DNA of 64,000 nucleotides, taken from IMG/VR virus record IMGVR_UViG_3300027754_000037; one strand, 5' to 3'. Position numbers and translations under genes: made by a program. This stretch comes from a virus. Its lineage: Duplodnaviria > Caudoviricetes. The first letter of the stretch is position 1. Every line of letters begins with the position of its first letter. Positions 46,499 through 59,996 of the stretch are shown here, one piece after another. A model generated the notes under the pieces. That model was not told the origin of the DNA. It was given only the letters and a program-made list of their open reading frames with translations, and ran no database searches.

Positions 46499-47494
46499 AT
46501 GAGTGCAGATTCGCCAAATCATCAACAAAGAGATTACATCCAATGTGATCCCAAGGCAAGCTTTCCTGATCCGAATCTCGATTCGGCTCCACCTTACTGC
46601 GATCCTGACGGACCTCCGCTCGACAATTTAAGAACAGTAAATGACAAAAGCTACAACTGGCTTCGTGACCAAACCATGAAAAAAACTGGTTTTGGTGCAA
46701 AAGTTGATTGTGATCCGATGCAGCGTGGACAGATAGTCAATGATTTGGAAAATCCCGACAGAGCAGTTTTATACCGATATTCCAAGTCCATTCGTGGCTG
46801 TGATGAGGCCATGCTTGATATGTTCAGAAATGTTGTTGTGATTGATGAGGACGGCAAAGCTTGGCCCATTCCGGTTATGCTTGGACCTCCAGAAAAAGCC
46901 GTGGCTGCTATCATTCAGGACAATGTAAGAAAAGACGAAACTTTGGTCGTTGATAGACTGAAGCTTCCTTTAATGGCGTTGGCGCAAACGAATATAGAAT
47001 ATGATTTGAATCGTTACACATATCACAAAGCTTTGAATTATTACACAAACTTATCAGACGGAAAACCCAGCTTCACGGTTTCGGAAAAATACAACAGAGA
47101 TACGATCTTTGGAATGGCTCGTGGCGTGCCTATAAACATAGGTTACACGCTTACTGCGTGGACAATGTATCGTGAAGATATGAACCAAATTTTGGAACAA
47201 ATTTTAACAAAATTCAGCCAACTAGCCTATATAAGGGTGACAGGCGTACCTTGGGAAACAATTGTTAAGCTAGACTCTCTTGCGAACAACCTGAATGCGG
47301 AACCGGGCGATCAAGCAATAAGAGTGATTAAATACGAATTTAATCTAACTGCTCAAACATATATACCGCAGCCCATTGAGCGCAAGAAAGCGGTGCTGAA
47401 AGTGAAGCTGGACTTCGTGGACGGCATAAGAGATGAACAAATTACTGAAGTGTTGTCAAGAATTGAAGACACAGTAAAGGAACTGGAATGTTAG
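46499..47494 (+). CDS. gp15: Tail terminator/sheath stabilizer (gp15-like)
   Basis: LPLMAL...MARGVPINIGYTLTAWTMYREDMNQILEQIL; upstream of the sheath gene. Confidence 0.75.
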   Translation: MSADSPNHQQRDYIQCDPKASFPDPNLDSAPPYCDPDGPPLDNLRTVNDKSYNWLRDQTMKKTGFGAKVDCDPMQRGQIVNDLENPDRAVLYRYSKSIRGCDEAMLDMFRNVVVIDEDGKAWPIPVMLGPPEKAVAAIIQDNVRKDETLVVDRLKLPLMALAQTNIEYDLNRYTYHKALNYYTNLSDGKPSFTVSEKYNRDTIFGMARGVPINIGYTLTAWTMYREDMNQILEQILTKFSQLAYIRVTGVPWETIVKLDSLANNLNAEPGDQAIRVIKYEFNLTAQTYIPQPIERKKAVLKVKLDFVDGIRDEQITEVLSRIEDTVKELEC

Positions 47495-47709
47495 AGATCG
47501 TTAATAAGCAAAAACATCCTGTACAATTGATTATCAGGTCGAGGAGGGCCACCCGATCTTTTACGACCCTAAATCTTCCGGGGATAGGGTCAGGAAAAAA
47601 TGTTTATCTTTTAGAAGATGAAAGAAAAACTGAATACATAGATAGAGCAGTTAAAGATGGATTGATTTCCATGAAACATACATCAAACAAGTTACGAAAG
47701 GGAGAATAA
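47488..47709 (+). CDS. Small hypothetical protein
   Basis: Coupled 73-aa ORF before the sheath gene. Confidence 0.6.
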   Translation: MLEIVNKQKHPVQLIIRSRRATRSFTTLNLPGIGSGKNVYLLEDERKTEYIDRAVKDGLISMKHTSNKLRKGE

Positions 47710-47713
47710 GACT

Positions 47714-50077
47714 ATGGCGCTTCTAAAAGGCTTCCCGCCTTCTAACACAATTAGTCCAAGTGTTAGGATTACTGAAAAAGACCTGAGCTTTATTGCTCCT
47801 GAGCAGTCTAATCATGTTGCAGGACTTATTGGCTTCGCATCCAAGGGACCAGTCAATCTTCCTACCTTGATTAGCACCAGCCGTCAATTGCACACGGTTT
47901 TTGGCAATCCACACCCCGACACGAGCGATCCATTCCTTATCTACGCTGCCGATCAATACCTTCTGGTCGCAAACCAGTTGTATGTCGTGCGTGTTGCAGA
48001 CACGGATACAGTCAGCGACGAGCAAGCTTTAGTAGCAACTGTCGATGTGCCCGCTGCTGGTACTGTTGCCGAACTCGAGTCTGACACGGCTGGCCCTTAC
48101 ACCTTTGATGAGGATTCCTTCTTTAGGTGGAAACTCAACGGTGTATTGTCTACAAAAACTCTCGTAGTTCTAGCAGGAACTTACACCACCGAAGAAGTCG
48201 AGATTGCCCTGAACGAGCAACTTGATCTGATCAATGATGGCATTGAGTTCTTTGTAAGCGGAACAGACACATTGGGTGTCAGAAGTTTGTGGGCATATGG
48301 CCCTTTCGCCTCTTTGGAACTTGTTTCCATCCAGAACGCCATTTATGGCGGTGAAGTTGACGATAGCGTTGACTTGACCGATGGCGACATCCGCAATAAT
48401 CCGACTGGATTGGGTACTGCAATGACGAGAGCTATGACCACCACGGGAACAGCTTTGTCTTTTGATTTGATCATATCGGACTCTCCAACTATTGATTTGG
48501 TTCTGGACGGAACCGACAATATCTTGATTGACCAAGTAGTCCAGTCTTTAGAATTGACCAACGACACCTACACCACCATTGACGACCTTGTCACTATGAT
48601 TAACGGTCTTTTGGTCAGCGAAGGTGGCGATCTGATTGGTGGATGGCACGCTGTTGCGGTTGGCGACAACCTACGCTTTGTGACGGATCATCATGGCAAA
48701 GATGCCAGAATCAGAGTAAAGCCCAGCAGCACAGCAATCACCAGTTTGAGCAATCCATTTGATTTTGATACTCTGACTCACAGCGGAACCAGTCCTTCTG
48801 GCGCTGCCGATGATGTTGCTGGAACCAGCAGCTTCGGAGTCGTGTATGGAGCAAATAATACAAGTGGCGATGTTAGCTTCACCCTGTCTGCTGACTCTCC
48901 CGGTATTGATGGCAACTACACCAAGGTTAAGATTAGCACCAGCAGCTACGACCAGACCTTCATTTTCGAGGTTTATAATAACGATGTGCAAGTTGAGTCT
49001 TGGGGTCGTCTGACCAAGGACACAGCAAGCCGATTTTATCTTGAGACCTACATGGCTCTGGTTTCGGATTACATCCGTGTTCTTGACAACACGGCGATCC
49101 TAGCAGGTCCCCTGAACGGCGAATACGACCTGACAGGTGGATCAGACGGTATCCCTTCTGATCCTGACGGTCAAGATGTTCTGCTCGCAGGAAGTCCTTT
49201 GGCATACACCGGCATCTACTGTCTCAGCGAGCCTGAGCAAGTTGATATTGATCTCATCGCAATTCCCGGCCACTCCAGCACCGCAATCGTGCAGGAACTC
49301 TTGGCCTTCTGCCGTGATACTCGCCAAGACTGCTTGGCAATCATTGACTCTCCTTTCGGCCTGACCGTAAAAGAAGTTGTCGCATGGCAAAATGGTACAC
49401 ATCCTCTGAACACCACCAAATTCGACAGCGATTTCGGCGCTCTGTTCTGGCCTTGGGTCAAACTGTATGACCCATACAACAAGGTTGATGTGTGGTGTCC
49501 TCCCAGCGGTTCGGTGCTCGCAACCATCGCTCGTAGCGACTTCTTGAGCGCACCTTGGTTCGCACCCGCTGGTTTGAACCGTGGCGTTGTGCCCAACATC
49601 ACAGATGTCTACAGCCGTCCTACTTTGCAAGAGCGGGACTTGATGTATGGCAATCGCAACTGCGTCAACCCGATTGTGAACTTTGTGGATGTCGGTGGCT
49701 TTGTGATCTTCGGCCAGAAGACCTTGCAGAGAACGCCTACGGCTCTGGACCGCATTAATGTTCGTCGTCTGATGTTCTACATCGAGAAGAGAATTCGCAA
49801 GGCCAGCCGTGGCTTGCTGTTCAATCCTAACGACGATATTTTCCGCAACAGGTTCGTGAGCATTGCTACTCAAATTCTCAATGAAGTAAAGATTGGTCGT
49901 GGCTTGACTGATTTCATAATCAAGGCAGACACAGAGCTCAATACTCCCGATGTGATTGATCGCAACGAGTTCCGTGCTCGTATCGGCGTGCAACCCACAA
50001 GGGCAGCGGAATTTATGTTCATCGAGTTCTCGATTCACAGAACGGGAAGCTTCGCTGAAGACGCAGCTACTTTCTAA
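47714..50077 (+). CDS. gp18: Contractile tail sheath protein (gp18-like)
   Basis: SPSVRITEKDLS, GFASKGP, PWFAPAGLNRG, GQKTL, RINVRRL and QPTRAAEFMFIEF. Confidence 0.97.
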   Translation: MALLKGFPPSNTISPSVRITEKDLSFIAPEQSNHVAGLIGFASKGPVNLPTLISTSRQLHTVFGNPHPDTSDPFLIYAADQYLLVANQLYVVRVADTDTVSDEQALVATVDVPAAGTVAELESDTAGPYTFDEDSFFRWKLNGVLSTKTLVVLAGTYTTEEVEIALNEQLDLINDGIEFFVSGTDTLGVRSLWAYGPFASLELVSIQNAIYGGEVDDSVDLTDGDIRNNPTGLGTAMTRAMTTTGTALSFDLIISDSPTIDLVLDGTDNILIDQVVQSLELTNDTYTTIDDLVTMINGLLVSEGGDLIGGWHAVAVGDNLRFVTDHHGKDARIRVKPSSTAITSLSNPFDFDTLTHSGTSPSGAADDVAGTSSFGVVYGANNTSGDVSFTLSADSPGIDGNYTKVKISTSSYDQTFIFEVYNNDVQVESWGRLTKDTASRFYLETYMALVSDYIRVLDNTAILAGPLNGEYDLTGGSDGIPSDPDGQDVLLAGSPLAYTGIYCLSEPEQVDIDLIAIPGHSSTAIVQELLAFCRDTRQDCLAIIDSPFGLTVKEVVAWQNGTHPLNTTKFDSDFGALFWPWVKLYDPYNKVDVWCPPSGSVLATIARSDFLSAPWFAPAGLNRGVVPNITDVYSRPTLQERDLMYGNRNCVNPIVNFVDVGGFVIFGQKTLQRTPTALDRINVRRLMFYIEKRIRKASRGLLFNPNDDIFRNRFVSIATQILNEVKIGRGLTDFIIKADTELNTPDVIDRNEFRARIGVQPTRAAEFMFIEFSIHRTGSFAEDAATF

Positions 50078-50108
50078 TTTAGATTAACGATAAAGGAGAT
50101 TTTGAATC

Positions 50109-50747
50109 ATGGCACTAGAAAACAATCAACCAATGGGCATGGGTCAACTAGGTGGCTCAGGTCTTATCTTCAAAAGGAAGTACCGCTGGACATTCAAGGT
50201 GGACTGTAGCTGCGGTTTTGGCGAAATCCCCGAGTATTTCGTCAAGCTGGCTTCTCGCCCTAACTTGACGATTGAAGAGCAGGAAATCAACTACTTGCAT
50301 GGCAAGATGTGGATTCCCGGCAAGGGCTCGTGGGAAACCATCACCGTAACCTATTACGACATCGCTGGACCCGACGCTGTTCAAGGCATGACCACGCTGT
50401 TTAGCTGGTTGGCAACGGTGTATGACTTCACCGATCCTGTCGGTCTCAAGCAGTCTTCCATCCGTGGTATTCCCGGTGGTGGCAATATTAACGCAAACGC
50501 CGCAACCCCCAACAATCGTGCTGGTGGCTACTCCGCAAGAGGAACCCTGCAACTGTTTGACGGTTGCGGACAACCTGTGGAAAGGTGGACTCTGGACAAC
50601 ATGTGGCCTCAAGCTGTTAACTTTGGCGAGCTCGATTATTCAAGCTCTGAAGAAGTTACCCTTGAATTGACTCTACGCTATAGCGAAGTCAAGTACGAAC
50701 CCCTCTGTGGTGGTTCGGTCAAGCCCTGCTGCGTTGGATGCGGTTAA
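50109..50747 (+). CDS. gp19: Tail tube protein (gp19-like)
   Basis: ASRPNLTIEE, WETITVTYYD, WPQAVNFGELDYSS and LTLRYS; directly after the sheath gene. Confidence 0.9.
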   Translation: MALENNQPMGMGQLGGSGLIFKRKYRWTFKVDCSCGFGEIPEYFVKLASRPNLTIEEQEINYLHGKMWIPGKGSWETITVTYYDIAGPDAVQGMTTLFSWLATVYDFTDPVGLKQSSIRGIPGGGNINANAATPNNRAGGYSARGTLQLFDGCGQPVERWTLDNMWPQAVNFGELDYSSSEEVTLELTLRYSEVKYEPLCGGSVKPCCVGCG

Positions 50748-50763
50748 TATTTATTTAAAAATT

Positions 50764-50805
50764 AAACGGGCCTTGTATATTAGAATATACAAGGTCCGTT
50801 TTTTT
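50764..50805 (+). terminator. Intrinsic terminator between the tube paralogs
   Basis: AAACGGGCCTTGTATATT-AG-AATATACAAGGTCCGTTT plus T tract. Confidence 0.85.
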
Positions 50806-50821
50806 ATGAAAGGATAACGGC

Positions 50822-51364
50822 ATGGCAGAAAATATGGGTTTTGGATTTGGACTTAATGGTCCGAATACCATCTATAAAAGAAAGCATCGTTGGCTTTTAA
50901 AAATTCCAGATGTTTCCGCTGAAGGAATTGACACCTTACCTCCGCAAAAGAGTGCAAGGCCATCCTTATCTTTCAAGGAAATTGAAGCTCAACATCTTAC
51001 TGAAACAGTCTATTTCCCCGGTAAACCAGACTGGAAGCCTATTCCTCTTACCTTATATGAATTAAAAAAACCAAACAGACATCCTGTTTGGGATTGGTTA
51101 TCCAATCCCAAATACGGCTGGACTTATGCTCCAGACAGAAAAAGTGAATTTCAGCCATCTTGCGATGGATTCAAAAAACAAAAAGCCCGTCTTGAAATGT
51201 ATGACGGTTTTGGAGACACCATCGAAACATGGATTTTTGAGTCTGTTTGGTTTAACGATATTCAGTTCGGCGACCTTGATATGACAGATAGTGGTATCGT
51301 TATGTGCGAACTTACTCTTCGTTACGACAGAGCGTACTGGCAACAAGGTTGTATACGAAAATAA
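50822..51364 (+). CDS. Second tube-fold protein (gp19/gp54-like)
   Basis: SARPSLSFKE, FPGKPDWKPI, IQFGDLD and LTLRYD. Confidence 0.85.
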   Translation: MAENMGFGFGLNGPNTIYKRKHRWLLKIPDVSAEGIDTLPPQKSARPSLSFKEIEAQHLTETVYFPGKPDWKPIPLTLYELKKPNRHPVWDWLSNPKYGWTYAPDRKSEFQPSCDGFKKQKARLEMYDGFGDTIETWIFESVWFNDIQFGDLDMTDSGIVMCELTLRYDRAYWQQGCIRK

Positions 51365-54816: not shown

Positions 54817-55902
54817 ATGGCAGATGACACTTTTCGCCCACGCAAGTTTGAAGAAACGACCCCCAACGATCCAGTCGATATGGCACAGCAGATGCGTCAA
54901 CAGGTCAATCCTGAAGCAGCCTCTGAAAATCCTGTTCAAGGCGCATTCAATATTCAAGGAAATGTTCCGCCAGCTTTTCAGGCAGCTTTAAGCGCAGCCA
55001 GAGGCGATTCGCCAAAAGAGCCCAAGCGTGGTTTTGGAAAAATGAGCACAGGCGGTGAGAGTCCAGTTGCCGCCAAACTTCAAAACTCTGGTTTGTCTGC
55101 TACTAGCCATCTTCAGGAACTTCTTCAAGGCCTGCGTGAAAACAAAACCATCTACGAAGAACTCGAATTGCCTTCTAAGGGCAAGTTCTACAATGGCGAA
55201 GACGGCCCTTTAAATGGCGTTATCTCCATTCGTGCTATGACCGGTGAGGAAGAGCAAATTCTTGCTACTCCCCGATTCGTCCGCAAGGGCCAAGCAATCA
55301 ACATGATTTTTCAAAAGTGCATCAAGGAGAGTTTCCGACCAGAGAACCTCTTGACGATTGATAGAACCTATCTCCTTATTTACCTGCGTGGTATTTCCTA
55401 CAGCCCAGAATATGAAGTTGAAATTAAGTGCCCCGAGTGCGAAAAGAAGTTCAGTACCACAATTGACTTGAATAGCCTTTATGTTGAGTCTTGTCCCAGC
55501 GAATATGGACCCAATCTTCAAGATGTACTCCCCAACAGCAAGCTTCCTTTTACCTACAGATTATCAACAGGCAAAGATGAGCAAGACATTCAGGAACACA
55601 GGGATCGTCGCCTCAAGGCTTTCGGTGATGCTAGCGCTGATGATACTTTGATTTACAGAACTGCACAGCTATTGCTTGACATCGATGGAATTACGGACAA
55701 GCAAGAACTTCAAGTCCTCCTCAAAAACCTTCCAATCAATGATGTCGCCTACATTAGAAGTTTGGTAAATGAACCTCCATTTGGTGTTGATACCAGCATT
55801 GAAATGGTTTGTGGCAGTTGCCTTCAAGAGTTTGATATCGACTTACCCCTTGAAGCAAATTTTTTCTTCCCCCGGCGCAAGAAGGTGAAGACCCAAGTCT
55901 AG
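54817..55902 (+). CDS. gp26: Baseplate hub / tail assembly protein (gp26-like)
   Basis: YEELELPSKGKFY, IRAMTGEEEQIL, LLIYLRGISY, CPEC...CGSC and ANFF; SD AAGGAG. Confidence 0.8.
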   Translation: MADDTFRPRKFEETTPNDPVDMAQQMRQQVNPEAASENPVQGAFNIQGNVPPAFQAALSAARGDSPKEPKRGFGKMSTGGESPVAAKLQNSGLSATSHLQELLQGLRENKTIYEELELPSKGKFYNGEDGPLNGVISIRAMTGEEEQILATPRFVRKGQAINMIFQKCIKESFRPENLLTIDRTYLLIYLRGISYSPEYEVEIKCPECEKKFSTTIDLNSLYVESCPSEYGPNLQDVLPNSKLPFTYRLSTGKDEQDIQEHRDRRLKAFGDASADDTLIYRTAQLLLDIDGITDKQELQVLLKNLPINDVAYIRSLVNEPPFGVDTSIEMVCGSCLQEFDIDLPLEANFFFPRRKKVKTQV

Positions 55903-56087
55903 TTCTTTGGCAGAACTTGGCTGAGGAAGTATTCTTTTTCCAATACCACTTGCGTCTAGATATGTATGGGTCTATGAGTCTGCCAATCAACATGAGAAGG
56001 TGGTTGATTGAAAGGTTTATTCAACAAAAGGAAAGCGAAAATCAAGCAATGGAGGCCCAACAAAGAAAAGGAAGGTCTAGAAAGTAA
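55860..56087 (+). CDS. -1 frame extension of the gp26-like ORF (gp51/gpGT-like tail), via predicted frameshift
   Basis: T TTT TTC at 55860-55866; -1 frame open to TAA 56087 encoding ...LWQNLAEEVFFFQYHLR...RWLIERFIQQK. Confidence 0.7.
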   Translation, partial: FFLPPAQEGEDPSLVLWQNLAEEVFFFQYHLRLDMYGSMSLPINMRRWLIERFIQQKESENQAMEAQQRKGRSRK

Positions 56088-56827
56088 TGGCAAAAGAAAG
56101 ATATCAAAATCCGAGTTGCGGAGATGAGATTACGCTGCGATTGTTTACCTACCAAAGTAACAATCGCAGCAATGTCGAAAGCATTACAGAAATAAAAATT
56201 TATGTGATTGATGATACGCTCAGAACTTCAGAAAATCCTGAAGGATTGCATTTGATTGAAACAATCGATGGATCAAATGTCGTCGAAGAAGAAACTGGAC
56301 AATATTCGATTACATTTACAGCAAATCCAGACCTTTACATCATCGGCAATTATTACGATGCATGGACTGTAGTTTTTTCTACTGACGACTGCGCATCATC
56401 TGATATCTATAACAAATTCAAGTTGTATAGCCACCTTTGGTTTACTTCTCCAGTACCTTTAATTTACGATTTTAACTTTAATTTCAGGCCAAACAGGATT
56501 CGCAAGGGCTCAAAACGCTATGTAATGGTGCAAATCACCCCGAATGTTCCACGAGGTGCCGATATAACTCCCTATTACGAAAATCTTGCCATAGTCTCAG
56601 ATTTAAGGGTCAGTATGTCACTTTCTTGTGGAGAATGTGTACCTGCTGAGGAAGACCTCAGGTTGGTTGTAGATCGGCACCTTGTGGAATATCGGGAAAA
56701 GGGTTATGGGTATTGGTATTTTGACACAAGTCTTTATGAAGAAGGCATTTACGATGTTTGGTTTGAGCTCGCTTTGGGCGAAAACATCTATCTTTCTGAA
56801 AAGAATGCCCTACAAATTTTCACTTAA
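56087..56827 (+). CDS. Putative baseplate/structural protein
   Basis: 246 aa, beta-rich; TAATG coupling to the frameshift ORF. Confidence 0.65.
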   Translation: MAKERYQNPSCGDEITLRLFTYQSNNRSNVESITEIKIYVIDDTLRTSENPEGLHLIETIDGSNVVEEETGQYSITFTANPDLYIIGNYYDAWTVVFSTDDCASSDIYNKFKLYSHLWFTSPVPLIYDFNFNFRPNRIRKGSKRYVMVQITPNVPRGADITPYYENLAIVSDLRVSMSLSCGECVPAEEDLRLVVDRHLVEYREKGYGYWYFDTSLYEEGIYDVWFELALGENIYLSEKNALQIFT

Positions 56828-56967
56828 TTGAAAATTTTCCAATTTATTTGTATCTAGCGCACAAAACTTCCTGTAAACACATGTGCAACAGTAATTCGTT
56901 GTGTTTAACAACAACATGAATTCGTGTTACTGTGACCTACTATTCACAGCAATACAGGGAGGTTTTC

Positions 56968-58605
56968 ATGCGCTCTTCCGATTCTTTATCCGCAAAACTG
57001 AACTGGTGGATTTCGCACAACAAAAATGTTCTCTTCGTGGGCAAACACGGAGTGGGCAAAACGGCGATGGTCAAAGAGGCTTTTGACCAGCATGGTCTCA
57101 AATGGCGGTATTTTAGTGCTGCCACGATGGACCCGTGGGTTGACTTCGTGGGCGTGCCCCGTGAGAAAACGGAGCAAAAAATACCCAAAGAGTTTGAAAT
57201 CATTCGTGAACTGGCCAGTATAAGCCGTGACATCGCAGTCCAATGGGTGGTCAACAACTGGAAACTCGATGTTTCTGCCGCTCAGACTGTGGTGCAGCAC
57301 GCTGTTGATCGCAAGGAGGGTTTGACCCACCTCGAGATAGTGCGTCCGCACGACTTCGCAAGCGGAGAAATCGAAGCTTTGTTCTTCGATGAGTTCAACC
57401 GTGCTCCCAAAAAGGTGCGTAACGCCACGATGGAATTGATTCAGTTCAAGTCCATTAATGGTCACAAGTTCCCCAAATTGAGGTTCATTTGGGCTGCAAT
57501 CAACCCAGACGACAACGAGTTGGGCTACGATGTGGAGAAGATCGATCCCGCTACGCTGGATCGGTTCATAATCCCCGTCGAAGTGCCTTACAAGCCGAAT
57601 GTGGAATGGTTCCGCATCAAGTACGGTCAGAGGCTGGCCGACAGCGCAGTTCAATGGTGGGACGAACTGTCAGACGAGGAGAAGAACAAAGTTTCTCCCC
57701 GCCGACTCCAGTACGCACTTGATGTGTTCGTGGAGAAGGGTGATGTTCGTGATGTTCTGCCTGTAAGCAGCAATGTCAGCAAGCTCATCACGGCTTTCAA
57801 CACGGGACCCGTCACAGAAAAGCTGGATGCGCTGCTGCGTACCCGCAACGATGATGACACTCGTAAGTTTCTAAACAATGAAAACAACTTCGCTGCTGCC
57901 ATCAAGTACATCCCCAAGGCTCCGACCTTGATGGAATACTTCACTCCGTTGATGCCCAAGGAGAAGCTTGCTTCTCTGATAGACACCGACGAGAAGATGG
58001 GTAGCTACATCATCAACAACATTGACACGGTGCCTGTCTTCAACTCCCTGTGCCACGAGATGGTTGATGCCAATCTCAATGCCAAGGTAGTGAAAAAGAT
58101 TCGCCGTGCCTTGACCGAGAACGAGGGACTTGCTAAGGCTTATGCCCAGCGCACCTCGATTCAAAACCAAACCGCTCCGCAACACTTCAATGTGATGCGG
58201 GCGAACGCAAAACCTTGGGGTGCTCAACTTGTGGCCTTGAACAATGCCGACTTCTCATCGGCTGCGAACAGGTCCGCAATCTACGAGATGATCGCCCAAA
58301 AAATACCCGCCAAACTCACGGTTGAGGAGGCGGTTGATACTTTGGTGCTGTTTGAGAAGCTTTTTTGCGACATCAACAGCATCAATGATGCAAACGAGAA
58401 GGGAAAGTGGCACTTCCCAAGTGTCTTGACGGGTTTTGACAAGTTGATGGGCATGGTGAATCATTGCTTGTACCAGATTCACATGAACACAGGTCAAAAC
58501 CTTCCCAAGATCATTGAGGAAGGCAAATGCAAGTTTGGTAATCTTATGACGAAGATTGTCAACGCTGGCCTGCGCCACCACCTCCCAAATGATGACTTCA
58601 AGTAA
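56968..58605 (+). CDS. MoxR-like AAA+ ATPase
   Basis: Walker A GKHGVGKT, Walker B FFDEFNR, WAAINP and DPATLDRF; SD GGGAGG. Confidence 0.9.
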   Translation: MRSSDSLSAKLNWWISHNKNVLFVGKHGVGKTAMVKEAFDQHGLKWRYFSAATMDPWVDFVGVPREKTEQKIPKEFEIIRELASISRDIAVQWVVNNWKLDVSAAQTVVQHAVDRKEGLTHLEIVRPHDFASGEIEALFFDEFNRAPKKVRNATMELIQFKSINGHKFPKLRFIWAAINPDDNELGYDVEKIDPATLDRFIIPVEVPYKPNVEWFRIKYGQRLADSAVQWWDELSDEEKNKVSPRRLQYALDVFVEKGDVRDVLPVSSNVSKLITAFNTGPVTEKLDALLRTRNDDDTRKFLNNENNFAAAIKYIPKAPTLMEYFTPLMPKEKLASLIDTDEKMGSYIINNIDTVPVFNSLCHEMVDANLNAKVVKKIRRALTENEGLAKAYAQRTSIQNQTAPQHFNVMRANAKPWGAQLVALNNADFSSAANRSAIYEMIAQKIPAKLTVEEAVDTLVLFEKLFCDINSINDANEKGKWHFPSVLTGFDKLMGMVNHCLYQIHMNTGQNLPKIIEEGKCKFGNLMTKIVNAGLRHHLPNDDFK

Positions 58606-58625
58606 TCATTTGCCCGAATCGTGTT

Positions 58626-58661
58626 AAGGTAGGTCGGGATTAAGTCCCGGCCTACCTTTTT
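58626..58661 (+). terminator. Intrinsic terminator between ATPase and vWA genes
   Basis: AAGGTAGGTCGGGA-TTAAG-TCCCGGCCTACCTT plus T tract. Confidence 0.75.
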
Positions 58662-58688
58662 GTTGGCACATAAAAAAAGGATTCAGCC

Positions 58689-59996
58689 ATGCAAACAACT
58701 ACTCGGCCAGTCATCACTAACGAAGAATGGTATGAGATTAGCAACGCTTTGGAACCACATCACGCAGTCTTCTACAAGTTATGGCAGATGGGAAAACCGG
58801 TTTTTGACGAACGAATACCTACCGCCTGCGTACAATTCGACAAGGAAGGTCAATTCGTAGTCTTCCGGTTTAACCCGAAGTTTTGGCAAGAGCTTGATCT
58901 ACAAAATCGCTTGTTCGTGATCTGCCATGAGGCGCTTCACATCGTGCTCAATCACGGCATGCGTGCGATTGATGCAAAGATCAACGCACAAGCAACGAAT
59001 GTGGCGATGGATGTCGTGGTCAATCACACTCTTGTCGAGAAATTTGGGTTTGATCGCAAAAATATTGACAACCAAGAAAATTACTGCTGGGTCGATACGG
59101 TTTTCAAAGACCGTGACCCTTTACCTGAAACCGATGAGGCTTTCGAGCACTATTACAACTTGTTCGAGAAGACTTACGGAGATGGTGGCATGGGTGACGG
59201 CGAGGCTGGCACACCTCAGACCGTTGATGATCACAGCGATATGGCACAGCAAGGCCAAGATTGGGGTGATGTGATTGACAAGCTCAACGAGGGTCTTTCC
59301 GACGAGGAAAAAGAGACTCTCAAGGATACGGTAAAGAAACACTTCCAAAAACCTTCCGATAAGCCCATCGAAGATGCACCGGCTGGCACGGGCACGGGTG
59401 GTCAATGGGTTTTTGCTGGTGGACCGAAAGCTGTCAAGAAGCAGAAGTGGGAAACCATCATCCGCAACTGGGCAGCGAAGAGCATGAAGGAAAGCGACCG
59501 TGATGTCGAGCAATGGGCTAGGCTGAATCGCCGTCTGACCATGCTTCCACGAGACATGATCTTGCCATCAGAAATGGAAGTTGATGACTTCTATGACGAG
59601 AAAAACAAGATCGATGTGTGGTTCTTCCTCGACACTAGCGGTTCTTGCTGGAACCTAAAGGATCGTTTCTTTACTGCTGCCGAAAGTCTCCCAGAAAAAC
59701 GCTTTAATTTGCGTTTATTCTGCTTCGACACGACAGTTGCAGAAACCACTTTGGCCAGCAGGAAGATTTATGGTGGTGGAGGTACATCCTTTTGGATCAT
59801 CGAAGACCATATTCAAAAAGTGATGAAGAATGAAAAGGCACAGTATCCCAAAGCGGTTTTCATCATCACCGATGGACACGGTGACAATGTGAAACCGCAG
59901 TTCGCCAAGAACTGGCATTGGTTCCTGACTCAAGGCGGTTCAAAAGTTTACATTTCCAAAGAGTCGAACACCTACAATCTTGGTGACTTTGAGTAG
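58689..59996 (+). CDS. DUF2201-type metallopeptidase plus vWA domain protein
   Basis: CHEALHIV (HEXXH), FLDTSGS (MIDAS), GGGGTSF and IITDG. Confidence 0.9.
   Translation: MQTTTRPVITNEEWYEISNALEPHHAVFYKLWQMGKPVFDERIPTACVQFDKEGQFVVFRFNPKFWQELDLQNRLFVICHEALHIVLNHGMRAIDAKINAQATNVAMDVVVNHTLVEKFGFDRKNIDNQENYCWVDTVFKDRDPLPETDEAFEHYYNLFEKTYGDGGMGDGEAGTPQTVDDHSDMAQQGQDWGDVIDKLNEGLSDEEKETLKDTVKKHFQKPSDKPIEDAPAGTGTGGQWVFAGGPKAVKKQKWETIIRNWAAKSMKESDRDVEQWARLNRRLTMLPRDMILPSEMEVDDFYDEKNKIDVWFFLDTSGSCWNLKDRFFTAAESLPEKRFNLRLFCFDTTVAETTLASRKIYGGGGTSFWIIEDHIQKVMKNEKAQYPKAVFIITDGHGDNVKPQFAKNWHWFLTQGGSKVYISKESNTYNLGDFE

Follow-up and report, generated by a model that had tools for sequence, protein, structure and literature searches.

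The gp26/gp51-family gene of an uncultured freshwater giant phage very likely gives rise to two proteins, a short form and a C-terminally extended form, by means of a -1 slip at the heptamer T TTT TTC, to judge from comparison with related sequences. The gene lies in a window of 64,000 nucleotides (nt), this being the whole stretch of DNA that was analysed, from the virus record IMGVR_UViG_3300027754_000037 (Duplodnaviria; Caudoviricetes), where the gene and the elements associated with it are all on the plus strand. The 0 frame, 54817..55902, is an open reading frame (ORF) of 361 amino acids (aa) that constitutes the short form and ends ...GCA AAT TTT TTC TTC CCC CGG ... GTC TAG, with the TAG at 55900; the heptamer at 55860..55866 lies in the X XXY YYZ phase of this frame (AAT TTT TTC). 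The -1 frame is open from 55860 to a TAA at 56085-56087 (75 codons counted from 55860), and the extension itself, 55866..56087, comprises 73 codons and the stop. Between 55866 and 55902 the two frames overlap, with the 0 frame encoding the tail FPRRKKVKTQV and its stop and the -1 frame encoding LPPAQEGEDPSL, and both peptides are conserved among relatives. A preliminary description of this DNA had pointed to the heptamer in the correct phase near the end of a gp26-like ORF, to a -1 frame that ends in TAATG coupled to the next gene, and to the want of an ATG near the start of that frame; all of this is borne out by the sequence, the TAA overlapping the ATG at 56087 and the first ATG of the -1 frame being at 55962. 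The same description proposed a -1 shift with a logic like that of the G/GT pair, and this reading is favoured here because the heptamer is conserved, because the -1 ORF is under selection without any conserved start codon, and because a two-gene version of the same arrangement, with an FFLP junction, exists in one diverged relative (contig L062).

IMG/VR contains 60 relatives at 50-79% identity, one on a 532-kb contig rated complete by CheckV, and the closest public record, at 45% identity, is LR756511, a 595-kb uncultured phage; the window sequence itself was also found in freshwater metagenomes. Against phage records a blastn search with the locus gave no match, and a tblastn search with the extension gave LR756511 only. 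The set used for comparison of the heptamer consisted of 44 distinct gene sequences with 45-79% protein identity, and T TTT TTC is identical base for base in all 44. The codon that precedes it is AAT in 41, AGT in two and GGT in one, so that the residue varies (N/S/G) with a constant T at the wobble position. Elsewhere in these genes F is encoded by TTC 302 times and by TTT 278 times, N is encoded by AAT 493 times and by AAC 383 times, and the internal control, another FFF located within the -1 ORF 25 codons further on, uses seven codon combinations. The nucleotides of the heptamer are therefore kept more strictly than the encoded residues call for (44/44, as against seven combinations at the control FFF), and the lack of conservation which, by the preliminary description, would have told against the shift is not what was found. 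It is also found in LR756511 and in the phages Atu_ph07, PA5oct and PBECO4, and where diverged relatives from other metagenomes align with the window they do so over no more than a short stretch about the heptamer (X2 record 2, X3 record 5).

The place of the 0-frame stop is likewise fixed, 40-49 nt past the heptamer, with the codon itself varying between TAG, TAA and TGA among relatives; as the type varies but the place is kept, it is taken to be a genuine stop rather than a recoded codon. Separate DNA runs span the T run without difference (X2 record 1, 55300-56170, and X4 record 10, 55746-55961), and the frameshift layout is not an assembly error, because these independent runs bridge the T run unchanged.

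Beyond the heptamer the -1 frame has the properties of a coding sequence. It is open from the heptamer onward in all relatives, and in many of them a stop lies 6 nt upstream of the heptamer (CTT GAA giving TGA), which leaves only a narrow window for entry into the frame. Across the aligned relatives the -1 ORF has no conserved start codon before codon 29-39, the first ATG, GTG or TTG of the frame occurs at codon 29-39 in many relatives, and the peptide upstream of those starts, (I/L)xLWxxLAEE(I/V)FFFQYH, is conserved with abundant synonymous change. The earliest possible start of the -1 frame in the window is the TTG at 55917..55919, which is the sole candidate for an own start before the conserved peptide; independent initiation there, which the preliminary description had raised as the competing possibility, finds little in its favour, as the codon is not conserved and recurs at this position in just three relatives (L003, L010 and L021). 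Over the 17 codons directly past the 0-frame stop the ratio of non-synonymous to synonymous polymorphism (pN/pS) is 0.23 in the -1 frame, compared with 0.98 and 2.31 in the other frames, and stops occur within those codons in 0/38 sequences in the -1 frame and in 27/38 and 11/38 in the other two. The variability of alignment columns is at its maximum at the 0-frame wobble positions upstream of the site and at the -1-frame wobble positions past the stop, and within the overlap it is damped at both (0-frame wobble 1.37 to 1.06 and 1.17 to 0.61), as would be expected for dual coding. On these patterns of substitution the -1 ORF is under purifying selection from the shift site onward.

A search of 1.84 billion proteins with the extension profile gave mostly ORFs of 32-120 aa, with called starts that vary from ORF to ORF. 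One match (P0027) was 327 aa long and lies on contig L062, which carries two tandem PF12322 genes with the genes further 3' in the same order as in the window. The first of the two, gene A, ends ...SGFFFPIAKRETEEK, that is with FFFP and a short tail, and is coded GGG TTC TTT TTC CCA, with the heptamer broken and the -1 frame closing at once. Gene B reads ...TGFFLPSPDSEKG... (TGFFLPSPD), coded GGG TTT TTC TTG CCA, and then continues through the extension in one frame. To go by their sequences, genes A and B are both of the products predicted for a -1 slip, the FF-LP junction included, fixed as two genes. In the complete 532-kb relative, as in LR756511, PF12322 is represented by exactly one gene and the extension by a single ORF, so that a long form in those genomes can arise only by recoding. 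A soil relative (L063) combines the frameshift arrangement with a standalone paralog of the extension domain of 123 aa (P0029, 6001-6372), located directly after the frameshifted gene.

Standalone proteins of 112-123 aa that carry the extension motif EE.FFL.YHLHM...RKW.I.RFI.QK were observed more generally (P0029, P0017, P0019, P0053, P0074 and P0134); these have their own, often cysteine-rich, N-terminus and a tail of the form DFL.EIERT.NG. Two apparent natural fusions were set aside. P0156, a protein of 365 aa from a 619-kb giant-phage contig inside a dinoflagellate assembly (an NCBI record named Symbiodinium microadriaticum), is an annotation artefact in which a eukaryote-style gene model omits about 40 codons around the shift site and thereby joins the two frames, mimicking the long form, and the contig that encodes P0028, a longer fused form, appears to be ridden with errors.

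The mechanism is very probably, from the nature of the site, an ordinary heptamer-type -1 frameshift that would follow the logic of lambda G/GT within the T4 lineage. Most ribosomes on 54817..55902 would end at the TAG at 55900 and release the 361-aa short form. A minority would slip at U UUU UUC, where the tRNA-Phe on UUU in the P site and that on UUC in the A site would re-pair one base back on UUU UUU, and decoding would then resume with CUU in the -1 frame and proceed up to the TAA at 56085. The long form produced in this way would have 350 + 73 = 423 aa with the junction ...LEANFF-LPPAQ..., the predicted junction peptide being ...NFFLPPAQEGEDPSLVLWQNLAEEVFFFQYHLR, and its 73-residue extension is predicted to fold as a helical hairpin. 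By analogy the short form would correspond to lambda gpG and T4 gp26 and the long form to gpGT and T4 gp51, with a shared core that would hold hub and tape-measure assembly and an extension by which a second component of the tail would be brought in, in a low and fixed proportion.

The 361-aa protein belongs to Pfam PF12322 ("T4_baseplate"; E 3.3e-18, 66.6 bits with a cut-off of 24.5), residues 117-350 matching positions 8-218 of the 219 in the profile, and a match to phrog_150 "baseplate hub" was obtained as well (E 2.4e-21). The core, about 250 aa long with a four-cysteine motif, follows a variable N-terminal stretch of about 100 aa, and the family domain ends exactly at ...LPLEANFF. In the AlphaFold2 models the core has a predicted local distance difference test (pLDDT) score of 82.4, with the last 10 residues below 50 and the basic tail PRRKKVKTQV disordered, and the extension has a pLDDT of 86.7 as a helical hairpin (H12-31, H35-39, H43-74). 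By shape the extension matches the C-terminus of 340-aa PF12322 proteins (template modelling (TM) score 0.69), an Atlas cluster bearing Gp51_C (TM 0.63/0.78) and a Phage_TAC_6 cluster (TM 0.56/0.63), scores that mean little for short helical pieces; Gp51_C is present on 27 of the 100 Atlas clusters nearest to the extension. Both gp26 and gp51 of T4 are themselves members of PF12322. T4 gp26 (208 aa) matches the family over residues 1-206 and its gene ends GAG TTC TTT GAG TTA CTA TAA, with neither heptamer nor extension, and T4 gp51 (249 aa) matches over residues 1-201 (E 3.9e-52) and then has about 48 extra C-terminal residues, designated Gp51_C (PF28602) in a newer Pfam release. This gp51 tail, DEIFTFYQINH...MIPAERGFVLKLIEKDK, resembles the extension, EEVFFFQYHL...LPINMRRWLIERFIQQKE. 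Both T4 proteins have been listed as hub assembly chaperones, gp51 being essential and of unknown function (Leiman et al. 2010, PMC3004832).

A similar design can be recognised in a number of other phages. As annotated by their depositors, Listeria phage LIS04 and Bacillus phage HSE3 have the sheath and tube genes followed by the PF12322 gene, then a gap or small ORF, and then the tape measure gene, which places the PF12322 gene of these two phages in the classical chaperone slot. The genes are arranged likewise in Bacillus phage SP-15 and Microcystis phage Mel-JY01, with the last gene encoding a very long, differently annotated protein. A homologous extension is found in the +1 frame, that of SP-15 (hhalign 95%, E 2e-8) starting exactly at FF-TP and that of Mel-JY01 matching at 94%, and the +1 sites read GAA TTT TTT CAC, GAG TTT TTT AGT, AAC TTT TTT TGG and TTC TTT CGT CCC. 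These +1-frame extensions in phages of Gram-positive and cyanobacterial hosts are probably a +1 version of the same recoding. Their locations are 2243-2470 in L067 (SP-15), about 3190-3422 in L073 (LIS04), about 3215-3428 in L074 (HSE3), about 3205-3494 in L075 (GXN1) and about 2240-2461 in L068 (Mel-JY01), and the +1 junctions are FF-TP, FF-VP or FF-GL, reached at TTT TTT N or TTC TTT CGT CCC.

Amongst cultured giant phages, Atu_ph07, PA5oct and PBECO4/121Q have an in-phase T TTT TTC at the ...(H/S)FF end of their "baseplate hub" genes, followed by -1 ORFs of 74-81 codons, which were located at 2271-2513 in L069 (Atu_ph07), 2340-2573 in L070 (PA5oct) and 2244-2465 in L071 (PBECO4). The codons at the site are CAT TTT TTC GCA in Atu_ph07, AGT TTT TTC AGA in PA5oct and CAT TTT TTC GAG in PBECO4/121Q. 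The architecture alone is shared in these cases, as hhalign of the window extension was not significant with the extensions of PA5oct and Atu_ph07 and was weak with those of PBECO4 and LR756508. No frameshift is annotated in the records of SP-15, LIS04, HSE3, Mel-JY01, Atu_ph07, PA5oct or PBECO4/121Q; in public records the long form goes unannotated, a spurious small ORF is called, or there is a gap ahead of the gene for the tape measure. As several of these phages are cultured, direct testing is easy.

Other explanations of the arrangement have to be weighed against a programmed frameshift. It is very unlikely that the downstream ORF encodes a separate small protein that is never fused, whether it were to start at the TTG at 55917, at an ATG further on or through reinitiation after termination at the 0-frame stop. 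Whilst gene callers in public data do report separate short ORFs at this place, the starts that they call vary from relative to relative, and where PBECO4 has an ATG right at the upstream stop, with the ORF annotated as its own gene, and L054 has an ATGA at the stop, the relatives taken together have no conserved start before codon 29-39, even though the peptide ahead of those codons is conserved and purifying selection acts on it. The extension domain does occur in the standalone proteins with their own N-termini; in L062, however, it is fused in frame at the exact slip junction, and separate initiation gives no reason for an invariant heptamer. Slippage of RNA polymerase, in which one extra U in the U6 run of some transcripts would give the same long form through normal translation, would seem very unlikely. 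The site is a homopolymer run, and U6 could in principle support such slippage, but its six residues fall short of the runs of about nine that are used for transcriptional slippage in bacteria. A one-base insertion or deletion could serve the -1 and the +1 arrangements alike, as the extension is reached from either frame and often at T6-T7 (SP-15, LIS04, Mel-JY01); HSE3 and GXN1, however, reach the +1 frame at TTC TTT CGT without a long run, and the conservation is that of a phase-specific X XXY YYZ, including the wobble T of the preceding codon. Finally, a sequencing or assembly error within one true continuous frame, or a decaying gene of which a dead remnant is left, is effectively refuted: homopolymer runs are error-prone on some sequencing platforms, but 44 distinct assemblies, drawn from many samples, share the arrangement, independent DNA runs span the T run unchanged, the 0-frame stop keeps its place as it varies between TAG, TAA and TGA, and both frames are under selection.

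There are also observations that weigh against a frameshift at this site and against its place in a tail chaperone gene. All of the support for the frameshift is comparative. RNAalifold on 39 sequences gave no covarying stem downstream of the heptamer; in its sole consensus the FFF codons are paired with EE codons at a distance of 80 nt, which is put down to the complementarity of TTC and GAA and hence to a by-product of coding. When the 70 nt past the site were folded in 37 relatives, the mean z was -1.3 and no common helix was found; a stimulatory structure 5-9 nt downstream is common at heptamers of this type, though not obligatory. The preliminary description had reported a stem CCAAGT/ACTTGG some 27 nt downstream, and this is indeed present in the window at 55893..55920 (CCAAGT 55893-55898, ACTTGG 55915-55920), 26 nt past the heptamer, but it is not a conserved element: all six pairs can form only in the window (1/39 sequences), and with 115/234 cells pairing overall it does not exceed chance. 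A conserved Shine-Dalgarno-like element upstream was not found, GGAGG occurring 5 nt upstream only where L-E is coded CTG GAG. As no stimulator is conserved, the efficiency of slipping may be low, and the heptamer may act alone at a low rate. At some phage G/GT sites the heptamer does work alone at a low rate. In E. coli, UUY codons in the A site and all-pyrimidine heptamers have been found to be prone to frameshifting (PMC4066793).

With regard to the chaperone assignment, an exhaustive comparison of the core model with 48,161 PDB chains gave as its best two matches YqbN (3klu_A; Z 6.6, root mean square deviation (rmsd) 2.8, 78 aligned) and the HK97 tail assembly chaperone (2ob9_B; Z 5.8, rmsd 2.9, 72 aligned), Z values that are modest, below the safe level of the tool, and concern model residues 135-221 only. 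YqbN of B. subtilis we take to be an XkdN-type prophage tail chaperone. After these come two small proteins of phage type, both uncharacterised, at Z 4.8-4.9, and unrelated matches begin at Z 3.7. Foldseek found no match in the PDB at E <= 0.001 for either the extension or the core, and the sequence profile of the core gave chance zinc-finger matches only. In the window no tape measure gene was seen adjoining the gp26-like gene. The hhalign comparison of the extension profile with the gp51 tail stays at E 0.04-0.08, which is not significant, and for this reason homology of the extension to the C-terminal tail of gp51 is kept as a lead only; there was no significant hhalign match to T4 gp28, the T4 proteins were too far removed from a hidden Markov model of reconstructed long forms for their C-termini to be aligned, and in PHROGs the extension was not linked to phrog_150 or phrog_634. 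Of the recoded gp26/gp26-51 pair that was put forward in the preliminary description, the architecture holds, gp51 being a PF12322 protein with about 48 further residues, and the homology of the two tails does not go beyond that lead.

On balance it is probable, on the basis of synteny, the modest structural matches and analogy, that T4-related and giant myophages have their tail assembly chaperone in the PF12322 gp26/gp51 family. A history that may be thought rather likely is that of an ancestral single gene with recoding at ...FF, by a -1 shift at U UUU UUC in giant phages of the Gram-negative type and by a +1 shift in phages of Bacillus, Listeria, Streptococcus and Microcystis, which in T4 became split such that gene 26 would be the equivalent of G and gene 51 that of GT. 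The tail-assembly-chaperone frameshift of long-tailed phages is reportedly conserved, as set out by Xu, Hendrix and Duda in 2004. A later review describes G-T frameshifting as conserved among long-tailed phages "except T4" (Atkins et al., PMC5009743). If the above is true this exception disappears, the same pair being made from one frameshifted gene, a tandem pair or two genes, and gp26 and gp51 gain a testable model as a ratio-controlled pair with a common core. A search of the literature, with most subscription journals outside it, found no report of a frameshift in gp26-like genes, nor of gp26 and gp51 as the equivalents of G and GT.

Upstream of the gene the window has a tail module, 46499-51364, made up of a sheath stabiliser (46499-47494), the tail sheath (47714-50077) and a pair of paralogous tail tube genes (50109-50747 and 50822-51364). 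The gene that follows the extension, 56087..56827 on the plus strand, has its ATG overlapping the extension stop and encodes a protein of 246 aa with no family match; it is a conserved neighbour that is also found in L062 and L063. It is the first of a trio at 56087-59996, the other members being a MoxR-like AAA ATPase (56932-58605) and a putative metallopeptidase with DUF2201_N (58689-59996), and this trio, which is kept in L062 and in part in L063, may constitute a further assembly or chaperone module. Within the extension, the codons for EE(I/V)FFF (GAA GAA nnn TTC TTC; 55923-55943 in the window) form a small self-complementary hairpin in most relatives, and pairing between them and the FFF codons of the slippery site, about 60-80 nt further 5', can occur as well; no covariation was seen, and this is probably a by-product of coding. 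Contigs from a lake metatranscriptome run (X9) match 55702-55852 and 55938-56088 at 100%, with the extension included and the heptamer not bridged; these contigs show neither strand, level nor rare slippage products, and carry-over of DNA is possible.

The arrangement can be compared with three known systems. As in lambda G/GT, the slip would be near the 3' end of a tail-assembly gene and would give a short and an extended form from one start, and the shift would be of the heptamer -1 kind in the window and +1 in relatives, as is also the case among known chaperone genes. Possible further likenesses to chaperones of the G/GT type are the place of the gene, which in LIS04 and HSE3 lies between the tube gene and the annotated tape measure gene and in SP-15 and Mel-JY01 between the tube gene and that for the very long, differently annotated protein, and the structure of the core, for which both of the top matches, at modest Z values, are tail assembly chaperones. 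Unlike the lambda pair, PF12322 is annotated as "baseplate hub" and not as a chaperone, and the binding partners are only putative here; the core is larger, at about 250 aa with its four-cysteine motif and an N-terminal region of about 100 aa, the extension has 73 aa compared with about 140 for the lambda T domain, and the gene in the window is not adjacent to that for the tape measure. T4 gp26 and gp51 share PF12322 with the gene described here, gp26 ends at ...EFF as does the short form, and gp51 continues for about 48 residues with a motif similar to the extension; in T4, however, they are the products of two separate, divergently transcribed genes, with no heptamer in gene 26, whereas here there is one gene and recoding. 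Lastly, dnaX of E. coli likewise makes two forms, tau and gamma, from one gene via a -1 shift at a heptamer, and some lineages encode those forms differently, but the dnaX shift truncates the protein and is driven by a Shine-Dalgarno-like element and a stem-loop, whereas in the gp26-like gene the shift would extend the protein and no conserved stimulator was found.

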